Positions 4,480-60,615 of a DNA stretch of 64,000 bases are shown here, piece after piece. Numbering within the stretch: position 1 is the stretch's first letter; the number at the start of each line of letters is the position of its first letter. The stretch is from Octopus sinensis. Lineage: Eukaryota. The DNA lies in NCBI RefSeq assembly GCF_006345805.1, contig NC_042997.1:49166001-49230000 (forward strand). The letters run 5' to 3'. The notes beneath the pieces were generated by a model. It saw only the letters and a program-made list of their open reading frames with translations. It was not told where the DNA came from and did not search any database. The position numbers and the translations under genes were made by a program.

Positions 4480-4688
4480 GTAATGGAGATAAACACAGTT
4501 AGGCTCAATATAAATATTGATATAATTTCACAGAGCACAAAAGATACAGAATAAAATAGGAAAACATGCAATTTTGTAACTCAAGAGTTGTTTCAGGAAG
4601 CCCAGATTTACATAGCAATCATAATAATCATACACTGTAGATGTGCAAAATGTCATGGATATGTAATTGGTAAACAGTCAAATGAAAA

Positions 4689-4772
4689 AGCTCAGTCGGT
4701 AGAGCATCAGACTTTTATACACTGACCTTGAAGGTTATCTGAGGGTCGCAGGTTCGAGTCCCTCTGCGGGTG
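4689..4772 (+). pseudogene. tRNA-Lys(TTT)-like sequence with a 19-nt intron, 5'-truncated
   Basis: AGCTCAGTCGGTAGAGCA TCAGA CT TTT A [4718-4736 intron] A TCTGA GGGTC ... GGTTCGAGTCC. The 5' acceptor strand is absent and the T-stem has two mismatches. Confidence 0.85.
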
Positions 4773-4987
4773 TATATTTGTTCTACCTGACTGGCCCTCG
4801 TGCCGATGGTACGTAAAAGCACCCACTACACTCTCAGAGCGGTTGGCATTAGGAAGGGCATCCAGCTGTAGAAATTCTGCCAGATCAGATTGGAGTCTGG
4901 TGCAGCCATCTGGTTCACCAGACTTCAGTCAAATCGTCTAACCCATGCTAGCATGGAAAGCAGACATTAAACAATGATGATGATGAA
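4689..4987 (+). mobile_element. tRNA-Lys-derived SINE (probably the octopus OK family) with an RTE-type tail
   Basis: tRNA-Lys(TTT)-like head at 4689-4772, then the family body (CACCCACTACACTC...GGAAGGGCATCCAGC...) and a (GAT)n tail. Confidence 0.8.
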
Positions 4988-5495: not shown

Positions 5496-5716
5496 CAATT
5501 GCAGCGTGGAAGGTGTTTATAAGCCATTTAAGAAACACACAAAAACTGACAAAACTCTGAAAATATTTTGACAAATTAAATTTAAATGTTGAAGTGAATC
5601 TAACAATTTTTGTGTGTTTCTTAAATGGCTTATAAACACCTTCCATGCTGCAATTGTTCTCGTTCCAGCACATGATCTCAGATCAGGTCACTTGCTATGC
5701 CAGTACATCTCCATTA
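5496..5716. mobile_element. Repeat with a ~50-bp near-perfect inverted duplication (PLE-like end)
   Basis: CAATTGCAGCGTGGAAGGTGTTTATAAGCCATTTAAGAAACACACAAAAA (from 5496) is repeated inverted, ending near 5657. Same family as 17439-17638. Confidence 0.7.
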
Positions 5717-43540: not shown

Positions 43541-43709
43541 ATTCTTAGAAGAATGAGAAGCCAGGTTCGAAATTTCCCCCAAGACACCTGATGAAGGCTG
43601 GATGGTATACCAGCCAAAATGCTGTGTTAACAACAAACAAGATGAGGACAAATATCCATCAAATGTAAATAATGTACATAATAACTCATCTCTTAAATAT
43701 AGAACTGTG
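43541..43709 (+). mobile_element. Solo PLE terminal repeat with hammerhead (GAAA mutated to AAAA)
   Basis: GACAC CTGATGA A GGCTGG ATGGTATA CCAGCC AAAA TGCT GTGTT at 43583-43628. Same family as 58441-58568. Confidence 0.8.
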
Positions 43710-44690
43710 TCAGCCATATCAGGCCAAAATATTCTACTTGTTTCATGTTCAAACTGACCAGATCAAACCTCTCACACCTATCCTATAATGCTATTCTAAA
43801 AATAAACATTTGCATCATTGAAATAGCAGAGCTGTGAGATAGTGTGTAATCAACTCAAAACAATGTGAATAAATAGGCATTACTTTTGACAGAGTAATCT
43901 GAATGCTAAAGGGTTAAGTCAAAAACTCATTAAGGAGCATTGGCCATTATCAACTCTTCACCACTGGGTTGCCTTTCTTTCCAAGGTCTTGGTTTTGAAT
44001 TGTCAGTGGTGCTCCTCTAACTTTGCTATTTTCTAGGCAGGGATGTTGGCCTTATGCAAACCCATTTTCATCTCTGGGAAAAGGAGCCCCATATGAGTCT
44101 AGTTTCTGTCCAGCATGAGATGTCCCCAGCCTGGAACTTGTACTCTGCTGTCATAACATTCAAGGTCACTGAGGCATACACACCACCACACCACAACAAG
44201 GATAGGCTCTTGTAAATTTTCTCTCCTTCTCTCTCACACACACATTCCAGAGGTGCAGAGTCCAAAAAGAAAGAAGCTATGTTACTTCTAGCCATACATT
44301 ATAAATAAGCTCTTTCTAAATTTTGTAGTTTAGTTACCAATGAGCCATAGGTGAAACAGAATATATTTTGTTGGACTAACAATTATGGATTATGTGCATG
44401 CACACACACACACACACACACACACAAGTAAAACAGAGGAAGATTATGAATTAAGAGGTAGACAAACAAATAAATATTTAAAGCTTGTAAAGAGAAAAGT
44501 AAAAGATTGAAAAAGCATGGAAAAATTATATGTAATAATAACAATGAAAGACTGTGTACAATGAAAATAAATACGCTAAATGAAAGGAACAGAAGTGGAT
44601 CCAGTGTTTCAGGATATACTCCAATATTAAAGAGGAGTATAAACAAAAAGAGAGGTTCAAGGAAAAGAAACAGAAATAATATTAAATTTA

Positions 44691-56962: not shown

Positions 56963-57134
56963 AGGCGAGGGAGTGGCTGTGTGGTAAGTAGCTTGCATAC
57001 CAACCACATGGTTCTGGGCTCAGTCCCACAGCGTGGCACCTTGGGCAAGTGTCTTCTACTATAGCCTCGGGCCAACCAAAGCCGTGTGAGTGGATTTGGT
57101 AGACAGAAACTAAAAGAAGCCCATCGTATATATG

Positions 57135-57524: not shown

Positions 57525-58062
57525 ATATATCTCAATATAATTCTCTCTTGCTTAACAGAAAGTCACAAGATCTTTTGAAGAAAATCAAAAATTTTAAACT
57601 ATTACCTTCATGTCATTTTTAAATATCTAAATGAAAAATGTAGTTTTAGCCTTAACTACTGAATATTGCATTTGTACATCCAGTCAAGAGACAGTATTCT
57701 GTTTACTTCATTTTAATTCACCTATAAATCACATGATTTATGTGAGAAATATAAAACTACAAGAAATGGTGTGAGCATAAACCACTGGATGTAAGTTACT
57801 TGCATTCAACTTTCTATTAGCAATATTCCTGATACAGCCTCCTTGTTCTATGGTATAAATTTCCTGTTTTAAAGAGAGCTGAAGTAAAACCTTCCATCAA
57901 ACTTTCATGTTATGTTCCAACCACCATCTTAAAAAAATTCTTCAAGTTTTTACATAATCAACTGAAACAAAGTACAGTTCTATATTTAAGAGATGAGGAA
58001 TTATGTACGTTATTTACATTATTTACATTTGGTGGATATTTCTCCTCATCTTGGTTGTTGTT

Positions 58063-58109
58063 AACAACAACGTTTCGGCTGATATACCCTCCAGCCTTCA
58101 TCAGGTGTC
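58063..58109 (-). ncRNA. Minimal type I hammerhead ribozyme (PLE type)
   Basis: GACAC CUGAUGA A GGCUGG AGGGUAUA UCAGCC GAAAC GUU^GUUGUU. Intact core, one extra base in the stem I 3' strand. Confidence 0.78.
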
Positions 58110-58312
58110 TTGGGGAAATTTCGAACCTGGGATGAAGTTAAAATAATAGACAGAGAACACCACTGGAAAATACAAAAACGAAAAGAAGCAGCACATATGC
58201 TAGGACACAAGCAGACCGAGAGCAGATATGAGCAGCATATGGGAACTGGTATTAAGGAAGGATAGGAAAATATTAGATTTATAAGCCCTAAAATTCACTC
58301 CATAATTGCCCA

Positions 58313-58388
58313 CAGGCATATGGCGTAGTGGTTAAGAGCGCGGGCTACTAACCCCAAGATTCCGAGTTCGATTCCAGGCAGTGACCTG
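58313..58388 (+). promoter_or_regulatory. tRNA-like cassette with Pol III A and B boxes inside the PLE 3' region
   Basis: A-box TGGCGTAGTGG (58321), anticodon-like arm GGG CTACTAA CCC, B-box AGTTCGATTCC, ends CAGG/CCTG. Stems are too imperfect for a functional tRNA. Confidence 0.75.
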
Positions 58389-58463
58389 AATAATAATAAT
58401 AATAATAACAACAACATCGAAAAATACCTTAGGAATGAGAACCCAGGTTCAAAATTTCCCCAA

Positions 58464-58509
58464 GACACCTGATGAAGGCTGGAGGGTATATCAGCTGAAA
58501 TGTTGTATT
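58464..58509 (+). ncRNA. Minimal type I hammerhead ribozyme, CpG-decayed copy
   Basis: GACAC CTGATGA A GGCTGG..TCAGCT GAAAT GTT GTATT. Confidence 0.65.
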
Positions 58510-60615
58510 AATAACAGCTAAGACGAGGACAAATATCCATCAATTGTAAATAATGTAAATAATGTACATGAAACAAAGTAGTCGTGGAGGTAGTGATGAT
58601 GACAATGGTAAAGATCGCAATTGACTGTATTTTCAATAGAAATACAATAACAAAAGAGTTTAAAACGTTTATAAGTATTCTAACTTAATCATTTAACATT
58701 TAAACAGGCCATATCTGGCCCAAATATTCTGTTTTGTGCTCAGTCAGATCCAGCCTCTCACACCTACCCTACAATGTCGTTCTAAAAGTAAACAATGATA
58801 TCATCAAAATCACTGAGCTACAAGATAATGCATGATTAACTCTTTAACATTTAAACCAGCCAAAATAATCCACCTGTTTTATCTTCAAACTGGCCAGATC
58901 TGGCCTCTCACACTTAACCTACAATGTTCTTCTGAAAATAAACAATCACATCACTGAAATCTCAAAGCTACAAGAGAATGCACGACCAATTCAAATCAAT
59001 GTGAATAAATAAGCATTACATTTGATAGAGAAATCTAAATGCAAAAAGGTTTGAAGAATTTCAGAGACTAATCCTCAGTTAAAATACATTGTGTTTTAAG
59101 TGAATGGATGATAGTTTAAGAATTCAGATACACAGAGTATCAAGCACAAAGAATCAGGTCAATTAATTATCCTAATTACCCAAAAGATAATAAAAATATA
59201 GTTGCTTGATCATATAAACCAGTTATAAAAAATTAACTGAGTGTCCTATCTCTCACCTTCAAATGTTTTAATTATTTATTTATGAGAGGGTATTCATATA
59301 TTGACGAAGGCCAGCAGGTGGGAATTCAAATAAATTACTTAGAAGTTTTCCGTGTATTTTACCTCTAAAAATTATTAAAGGAATGGAAAATTAATTTCTT
59401 GGATAAAGTGAATTTATTATTTATTGAGAGGGAGAGTACTACTACTTCGTCATCATCATCCATCTTTCATGTTGGCATGGGCTGGACGATTTTCCAAGAT
59501 CTAGTAAGCCAGAGAACTGTGCCAAGCTGCACTATCTGCTTTGGCATGGTTTTATGAGTGGATGCCCTTCCTAATACCAACTACTTTACAGAGTGGACTG
59601 GGTGCTTTTTTGCATGGCAACAGCACTGGCGAGGTCACCAAGTAACTTACATGAAAGGATACCTCAGCTGAGAGGAGGAGAACAGGTAAAGAAGGAGGTA
59701 GTTTTGTGTCCAGTGATGAGAGGTCAGAGTATGACAAAGGAACAGAGACAAGTATTTTGCCGTAGAGGAAATACATGGTTACTCCAATGAGAGAGAGAGA
59801 GAGAGAAATGTTGGTGATGTGCCTGGACATACTCTCAAGGTACAAGGATGTGAATATAAATGGAATGGTAGCAGATTTCCCAGGGTGTGTGAGTGGGGAG
59901 TTCATGAAAGTGCAAAATATAGAACATCATTGAAACATCAAGATTGATAACTGACTTCAAGAGTGGAAAGAATCCCACAGCCATGTACCTTGTCCAAAAA
60001 GACAATGCCTGCTCTAAGGTTTGGCTTCAGGAACACCAAATCAGGAAATTAGTATCTCAATATAATAGTTATCAGTATTTCATAACATACATTTTACTTA
60101 GTACAAACAGTAAAAGAAATCAATTCCTCTCACATTTTGAAGGTGGTACTCCAGTATGGCTTTGGTTATGGTAAACTATGCAACCTTATGGGGAAGAATG
60201 CAGGGTTTCTATTCTGTTCTTCCTCCCCTGCATCTGAACAAAGTGAACTATCCTTAGCCTTGGATCTCTGGTCCAAGGATCTCTGACATGGTAGGAGTCA
60301 TACCAATATTTAAGTACTTTTCTGGGATAGCCAAATTTTATTTATTTATTTACACACAAACAGACTGACAGACACAGACATATATGTATGTTATCATCCT
60401 TTTAAAATCAACTTCACAGTGTTTTCATAGTCAGATGAGATTCAGTGAGGCAGATCTTCTACAGTTGGATGCTTCTCCTATCACCAACCAGCATCTGTTT
60501 CCAAGCAACAGTATCCCCCTCCCCCACTAGTCTGGACATGTTCTTCAGAAGACTTGCAAATAAACATTACTTCTTGTAGGAATGTAAAGTTTGTTTACAG
60601 TACCTACACGATGTA

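Follow-up and report, generated by a model that had tools for sequence, protein, structure and literature searches.

Organization of the Insertion

The window analyzed here, a 64,000-nt stretch of contig NC_042997.1 of Octopus sinensis, harbors at positions 57963–58580 a truncated, head-to-head insertion that is best explained as a copy of an autonomous Penelope-like element (PLE) of the Penelope/Poseidon type; the tRNA-like cassette with A and B boxes in its terminal repeat is likely to be the element's own RNA polymerase III (Pol III) promoter. A preliminary description of this DNA had placed at the locus a 12-bp target site duplication (TSD), two arms with hammerheads, a GIY-YIG tail, an A/B-box cassette and an AAT/AAC tract, and every listed part was recovered in its place. 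The left TSD (TGAAACAAAGTA; repeat family D18) occupies 57963–57974 and is 100% identical to the right one at 58569–58580 (window coordinates, forward strand unless stated otherwise; positions with a sign refer to the family unit, counted from tRNA position +1). The left TSD is followed by an inverted, 5′-truncated second copy on the reverse strand (57975–58131), which comprises the pseudo-long terminal repeat (pLTR) from +129 to +278, with a hammerhead whose core is intact (about 58064–58109, reverse strand) and a 28-nt tail (57975–58002, reverse strand) that belongs to the tail class of 3′ ends. This inverted arm is ~90% identical to the direct arm (58442–58568) and is longer by those 28 nt, the PLE "tail". 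At the inversion junction, the arm and the open reading frame (ORF) share the 4-nt microhomology TGGG (58128–58131), as had been noticed before.

The last ~52 codons of the reverse transcriptase (RT)/GIY-YIG ORF are found at 58128–58284 (stop codon, 58282–58284), with the frame shifted by an 11-nt deletion near 58210. The suspected likeness of this stretch to PLE endonucleases was borne out by the comparison of 58128–58253 with the C-terminus of PLE protein P0001 (17/24 identities; pairwise E-value, 2 × 10−10), and Pfam alone returned no match for the 42 residues before the frameshift. A 29-nt spacer (58285–58313) separates the stop codon from the tRNA-derived cassette (58314–58386), and its last 7 nt and the cassette's first 5 nt make up a mini-palindrome that serves as the fold-back site in many copies. 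The A box (58321–58331) and the B box (58366–58375) are present, as described, and lie at tRNA spacing; the earlier start coordinate required a one-base correction, since tRNA position +1 is 58314 and not 58313. The start of the cassette is the main 5′ boundary of family copies, and a second zone of frequent 5′ ends is the (AAT)n/(AAC)n tract of variable length (58389–58417). Further downstream are an ATG (58435–58437, unit +122), which opens an 835-codon consensus frame when a pLTR precedes the body, a minimal type I hammerhead within the coding frame (58464–58509; predicted cut after 58504) with two C-to-T changes in the window copy (58496 and 58501), and the remainder of the direct arm (58510–58568), which stops at the first cluster of 3′ ends (unit about +245). 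Runs of four thymines (T4) are absent between 58313 and 58510, as had been described for 58313 to 58504. A second, solo copy of the family is located at 43544–43708 (87% identical); it lacks the cassette, contains the hammerhead region and ends with the tail.

Family Consensus and Encoded Protein

A search of the 2.7 Gb genome yielded 3,089 candidates, and in all 40 scored matches the ORF end, the cassette and the AAT tract were found together, at 88–91% identity apart from the window itself, which is one of the 40. The cassette is therefore fixed in the family consensus, as had been supposed, and its origin by secondary insertion into this copy was rejected.

The full element was rebuilt, as earlier proposed, from 70 of 101 long segments, and the resulting consensus contains one open frame of 835 codons encoding RT and GIY-YIG, which identifies the element as a PLE. 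When permuted so as to begin at tRNA +1, the unit measures 2,658 nt, with the ATG at +122 and the hammerhead cut after +191, and its parts follow in the order cassette, (AAT)n, ATG, in-frame hammerhead, RT, GIY-YIG, stop, 29 nt and next cassette. The frame runs through the hammerhead, the ATG lying between the cassette and the hammerhead, 70 nt before the cut; both this start codon and the absence of T4 from the whole unit had been overlooked. Copies that extend upstream of the cassette are 5′-truncated in a graded manner and contain coding sequence for RT and GIY-YIG motifs, and in those reaching the ORF start, the latter is preceded by the element's 3′ end, i.e., the usual pLTR. The single ORF for RT with a GIY-YIG endonuclease at its C-terminus is a PLE feature, and pLTRs arising from partial tandems, an inverted 5′-truncated copy and a one-sided tail of 30–40 nt agree with the definitions given for PLEs in PMC8557442.

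The RVT_1 domain was detected by Pfam in one copy of the family (L058; E-value, 3 × 10−10). The protein homologs are 760–1000 aa in length and share 28–54% identity with the family, the GIY-YIG-type motifs of which align with theirs; the Pfam GIY-YIG domain itself was matched in P0001 with an E-value of only 0.23. P0001 (54%), the nearest relative in the database, is likewise extended at the N-terminus through the hammerhead, and the top homologs include an Anolis protein, P0006 (42%). Identity between the cassette-bearing family and the genome's other PLE families is only ~29%, and the Penelope/Poseidon assignment, which is based on the best matches and on this value, is a putative one. P0001 originates from an ENA contig of 2,758 nt and, like the family, has an N-terminus encoded by the hammerhead and the lowest content of Phe; no matches were obtained when P0001 was used to scan metagenome contigs and alignment A1 to scan viral contigs. 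N-terminal extensions with ETS-type motifs that resemble translated hammerhead cores were also observed in P0006, P0013, P0018, P0022, P0032 and P0036, so that frames reading through the ribozyme may be widespread in this clade. Besides the cassette-bearing family, younger PLE families with intact RT/GIY-YIG ORFs of ~780 codons were encountered (L322, L323, L326–L328 and L340, all in G000); these have an upstream Asn/Gln-rich frame of 320–479 codons and 3′ untranslated regions (UTRs) with tandem repeats containing TGACGTC motifs.

tRNA-Like Cassette and Hammerhead

Neither ARAGORN nor Rfam (default settings or E-value ≤ 10) made a call on the cassette of the window. When the cassette consensus was compared with 42 tRNA sequences of the same genome, representing 10 isotype/anticodon classes, the best match was tRNA-Arg(TCT) (47 of 73 letters), with a score of 58.5, whereas the highest score among 300 shuffles was 42. 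In the 10 classes sampled, tRNA-Cys and tRNA-Ala score close behind, so tRNA-Arg(TCT) is one of several candidate donors. At another locus (L357), six or more tRNA-Cys-like genes are clustered within 3 kb. In the cassette, both boxes are intact at tRNA spacing and the acceptor and T stems pair poorly, the fold being weak (−13 kcal/mol). With its boxes, their spacing and its tRNA homology, the cassette has the sequence features of a type 2 Pol III promoter, and it lacks those of a tRNA gene, i.e., a paired cloverleaf and a downstream T-run (no T4 follows). The preservation of the boxes in a broken cloverleaf supports the promoter interpretation.

Rfam made no call on either hammerhead of the window; by inspection and folding, the core and stems I and II of both conform to the minimal type known from PLEs (PMC4209133). 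With regard to the occurrence of such a cassette in other PLEs, a simple pattern detected no pair of A and B boxes in up to 600 nt downstream of the ORF in any of 80 related loci on metagenome contigs, many of which have short flanks; Rfam returned no match in six of these 80 (L389, discussed below, included), and ARAGORN at a lowered threshold returned only noise.

5′ Ends of Family Copies

Exact matches to 22-mers numbered 697 in the ORF end (a further 145 nt upstream), 759 just before the cassette, 2,764 inside the cassette and 7,954 after the AAT tract, with inverted arms counted as matches. The step from 759 to 2,764 is, if anything, understated, because the cassette probe has CpG-prone ends. 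Since a first search with the cassette only had favored the variant of the window, 5′ ends were mapped in a pattern sample taken in positional order from contig 1. With self-matches excluded, it comprised the initial 90 hits of the cassette probe, of which three segmental duplicates were dropped (two of the remaining 87 are arms of one insertion). The 5′ end lay within −22 to +17 of the cassette start in 68/87 copies (calls at −13 to −22 being mostly over-extended fold-back junctions), and the other 19 continue into the ORF. By comparison, only 5 of 30 copies ended within 40 nt of a control probe in the ORF (Fisher p = 3 × 10−9). The counting of copies that begin at the cassette, as had been proposed, thus gave a result that fits a Pol III start. 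In addition, contigs from all four runs inspected, labelled as four other organisms, span the junction of the ORF end and the cassette and have loose ends at 58307 and 58315.

Some longer copies also begin at the cassette. The full copy L273 reaches from +1 to the tail, with the ORF and the second pLTR in between (unit 1–2936, in two aligned pieces), and is preceded by a short fold-back, while L275 starts at +4 and L271 at about −6, both extending into the ORF; two further loci (L272 and L274) are true tandems.

The pile-up of 5′ ends could also arise if the cassette were a captured head of a short interspersed element (SINE) that is not used by Pol III, the ends being produced by a coincident RNA polymerase II (Pol II) start, by fold-back or by a stall at the mini-palindrome. 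An inverted arm adjoins 41/68 short copies, a fold-back junction was recognized by motif in 16/68, and a fold-back hot spot may therefore have enlarged the pile-up. The AAT tract is the 5′ start of 11/30 copies sampled downstream (the aligner is not reliable inside the tract, and its calls there were verified by an independent search). Pile-ups can thus be created by local sequence where a promoter is unnecessary, and the known pLTR promoters of PLEs are of the Pol II type (PMC2377424). However, 19 of the 27 short copies with no adjacent inverted arm still start within −7 to +5, a stall at an RNA fold would predict ends 3′ of the cassette, the fold of which is weak, both boxes match the consensus, and the T4 depletion described below would not be accounted for. 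An unused cassette is thus decidedly unlikely, and were it only a passenger, the finding would amount to a curious but ordinary PLE family.

3′ Ends and the Relation of Short to ORF-Bearing Copies

The 3′ ends, mapped for 74 of the 87 copies, form two clusters, at +240–256 and +269–292, about 55 and 87 nt past the ribozyme cut. Only two of the 74 lie within 6 nt of the cut, and 69 are located at least 30 nt beyond it. In the window, the direct arm ends at the first cluster, whereas the inverted arm and the solo end 43544–43708 belong to the second. Such tails have been tied to two internal starts of reverse transcription on uncleaved RNA in Poseidon of Anolis (PMC11167929). As most 3′ ends are at least 30 nt past the cut, a cleaved RNA of ~190 nt was not the template of the sampled copies. 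The mobile unit suggested in the preliminary description, an RNA of this size ending at the ribozyme cut, is not supported by these positions, and it does not explain the solo end either, where the cassette is absent and the copy extends ~87 nt past the cut.

When 107 short copies were compared with 96 that bear the ORF (the samples being mixed and partly score-selected), three linked variants (+64, +160 and +229) were found to define two lineages, both of which are present among the short and the ORF-bearing copies; the two classes are also similarly diverged from the consensus. The differences between the two classes at these sites have p values of 0.04, 0.39 and 0.31, and two of seven variant sites differ between the classes at p 0.03–0.04, uncorrected. 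Among the 203 copies, a search for a subfamily confined to the short ones found none; the lineage of their own with diagnostic variants that an independent SINE would show is thus absent from this sample. The hallmarks of a non-LTR (long terminal repeat) retrozyme, ends set by ribozyme cleavage and tandem short units, are likewise missing; none of the inspected loci showed short units arrayed in tandem.

These data bear on the proposal that the short copies constitute a separate PLE-dependent SINE or retrozyme, mobilized as the ~190-nt RNA or as a short lineage of its own. Short copies outnumber ORF-bearing ones ~3.6 to 1, a TSD of at least 8 nt was found in 5/21 plain short copies, and the SINE-like repeats of Schistosoma do combine a Pol III promoter with a hammerhead (PMC6765202); some secondary copying of short copies may take place. 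On the other hand, the linked variants are common to both classes, arrays were not seen, only 2/74 3′ ends lie at the cut, and the Anolis protein requires RNA beyond its initiation site (PMC11167929). A separate lineage is consequently very improbable, and it appears rather likely that the short copies are by-products of internal initiation of reverse transcription by an element with its own Pol III promoter.

Depletion of T-Runs

In vertebrates, T4 terminates Pol III transcription, and the same is assumed for octopus. The sense strand of the consensus contains no T4 in either of two independently built versions, and it contains 30 A4 and 8 C4 runs. The number of T4 expected from the element's own codon usage is 3.2 (P = 0.016), and values of 3.3–4.5 (P = 0.006–0.022), 4.5 (P = 0.004) and 4.7 (P = 0.007) were obtained with the codon usage of three control PLE ORFs, with neutral Phe usage and by shuffling, respectively. 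Under Markov models of order 1 and 2, P rises to 0.08 and 0.18, because these models absorb the shortage of TT and TTT. The observed/expected ratio of T4 was 1.40 in the 80 relatives mentioned above, 1.08 in 37 of them with matched T content, and 0.15 in 30 decayed copies of the family itself. The other PLE families of the genome have 8–13 T4 per ORF at similar length and T content. The Phe content of the protein (2.4%) is equally low in only 4 of 120 homologs, P0001 included.

Among the 55 stretches of at least 1.5 kb in the set of relatives, one was free of T4. This relative, L389, has a T4-free ORF, no cassette and a T-rich 3′ UTR, therefore chance can yield a T4-free ORF. The cassette might instead serve as a Pol III promoter for short RNAs only, the protein being obtained by Pol II read-through and the T4-free ORF being fortuitous. 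Such an arrangement would explain the 5′ pile-up equally well and would not call for the translation of an uncapped RNA, and the Markov estimates leave room for it. Nevertheless, the full-length L273 and the two long copies L275 and L271 start at the cassette, the absence of T4 extends over the whole unit and is rare among relatives, and the 220 nt between the stop codon and the hammerhead contain neither another promoter nor a T-rich, intron-like stretch, unlike in 16/18 relatives, which have T4 between the ORF end and the hammerhead. A promoter restricted to short RNAs is thus regarded as unlikely.

Proposed Mechanism

Under the preferred interpretation, Pol III would initiate slightly upstream of the cassette, by a few bases, in a copy with a pLTR followed by the body, and could proceed across the entire unit into the pLTR that follows. 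Left uncut, this RNA would act as the message, with its AUG 70 nt before the cut, and also as the template, on which the element protein would initiate internal reverse transcription at about +250 or +278, as in Anolis Poseidon. A start at the first pLTR–ORF junction would run off the 5′ end of the RNA and give the abundant SINE-like copies of 250–280 bp, a start at the second junction would give 5′-truncated copies, such as the one in the window, or full copies, and the inversions seen head to head at the start of the cassette would result from fold-back at the mini-palindrome. The (AAT/AAC)n leader, which is unstructured and may resemble cap-independent viral leaders, would perhaps aid the translation of an uncapped Pol III transcript.

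Several observations speak against this interpretation. A Pol III RNA is uncapped, and its export and translation are left unexplained; moreover, an out-of-frame AUG is present at +7 of the unit. The 5′ ends are scattered over ~12 nt rather than fixed at one base, and the adjoining inverted arms and the second hot zone in the AAT tract point in the same direction. The lack of T4 represents a single event in one lineage, it is not significant under the Markov models, and L389 matches it with no cassette; TTT/TTC usage taken alone is not significant (p 0.08–0.16), and the consensus is also free of G4, as are 14/55 relatives. No intact copy was seen, and the divergence from the consensus at non-CpG sites is 4.9% for short and 5.9% for ORF-bearing copies. 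When three raw RNA runs and one contig set were placed on a full copy, both strands were covered equally and depth tracked copy number, and no transcription start stood out in the runs (unstranded, from another organism, ~6% read); the RNA reads say nothing for or against Pol III.

To our knowledge, autonomous retroelements rely on Pol II transcription or on co-transcription by RNA polymerase I, and Pol III heads mark non-coding SINEs. A more far-reaching version, according to which a captured tRNA-type promoter replaced the Pol II promoter and intron, all Pol III terminators were purged from a 2.5-kb gene, a protein of 835 residues is made from an uncapped Pol III transcript, and the same RNA yields thousands of SINE-like copies, is plausible but is advanced only tentatively. 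If true, it would provide a natural case of a protein translated from a long Pol III transcript and a route for the birth of a SINE from inside its own partner element. The pile-up of copy ends would map the 5′ end of the RNA and two internal priming sites of a PLE from the genome alone, and SINE-like stubs with PLE tails need not represent a SINE family.

Comparison with Known Elements

The octopus family is a PLE by every feature tested, and its 3′ end behaves like that of Poseidon from Anolis carolinensis (PAc; PMC11167929). According to the available text of that paper, PAc likewise has a single ORF for RT and C-terminal GIY-YIG, which begins in the pLTR and overlaps the hammerhead, and it shows two internal starts of reverse transcription, a one-sided tail and an uncleaved RNA template, as would apply to the octopus family. 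The distance from the AUG to the cut is 70 nt in the octopus family vs 26 nt in PAc, and the 3′ ends correspond to ORF positions +128 and +157 vs 111–118, respectively (PMC11167929). A tRNA cassette or Pol III promoter, present as a cassette in the octopus family, is not mentioned for PAc in the same portion of text. In position, the octopus cassette corresponds to the Pol II promoter and intron of Drosophila virilis Penelope, which has a TATA-less internal promoter similar to that of long interspersed elements and a 75-nt intron required for expression (PMC2377424); at this place, the octopus family has tRNA A and B boxes and the AAT tract, with no T-rich stretch.

The Schistosoma repeats Sm-alpha and Sj-alpha also have a Pol III-type promoter followed by a hammerhead, but they are tandem, non-coding, non-autonomous units freed by cleavage (PMC6765202), whereas the octopus unit encodes its own RT-endonuclease and its copy ends lie off the cut. 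Metazoan non-LTR retrozymes are small hammerhead units as well, possibly mobilized by PLEs, yet they are non-autonomous, with canonical hammerheads and tandem arrays, unlike the octopus family (PMC7229834). Helenus/Ajax similarly carry a small-RNA-gene sequence inside the terminal repeat and differ from the octopus PLE in being tRNA-bearing, non-autonomous LTR elements (PMC10886601). In the octopus PLE, the cassette is directly followed by the AAT tract and the pLTR, which sets it apart, by description only and as far as the accessible accounts go, from the octopus SINEs OK, OR1 and OR2 with their tRNA-derived heads. These three SINEs are reportedly tRNA-derived, with a presumed Arg tRNA origin for OR1 and OR2. 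OR1 or OR2 is classed among CORE-SINEs in the available portions of PMC4758252 and PMC4824008.

A PLE with a tRNA-derived promoter was not found in the literature (Repbase, Dfam and supplements lie outside that search and may hold the family), and a query combining Penelope, hammerhead, Pol III and retrotransposon retrieved no publication. Such an element is not mentioned in the accessible parts of PMC8557442, PMC13282606, PMC8967140, PMC4758252, PMC4824008, PMC3531059, PMC10886601 and PMC7229834. This suggests that, while the PLE architecture is known, a tRNA-derived cassette in an autonomous PLE is apparently undescribed in the literature searched.

Other Repeats and Minor Observations

Three diverged tandem units of ~150 bp (D1/D3/D4) are located at 58692–59030 of the window, downstream of the insertion, and a similar stretch follows the solo end (43711–43900). 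An abundant repeat copy ending in (TA)n, which we presume to be an octopus SINE, is present at 57000–57130 and in the flanks of several loci. A tRNA-Lys(TTT)-like head (Rfam tRNA, 28.4 bits) that resembles genomic Lys tRNAs was detected at 4687–4980; ~20 nt are inserted behind its anticodon, a repeat body and a (GAT)n tail come next, and the whole is probably a SINE copy. The long imperfect inverted repeat at 5496–5656, with a weak match to MIR841, is perhaps a miniature inverted-repeat transposable element. Finally, at L290:3727, RNA reads of organism B depart from the reference just upstream of the hammerhead and share a consistent alternative sequence, which may point to another family that has this hammerhead end in common.

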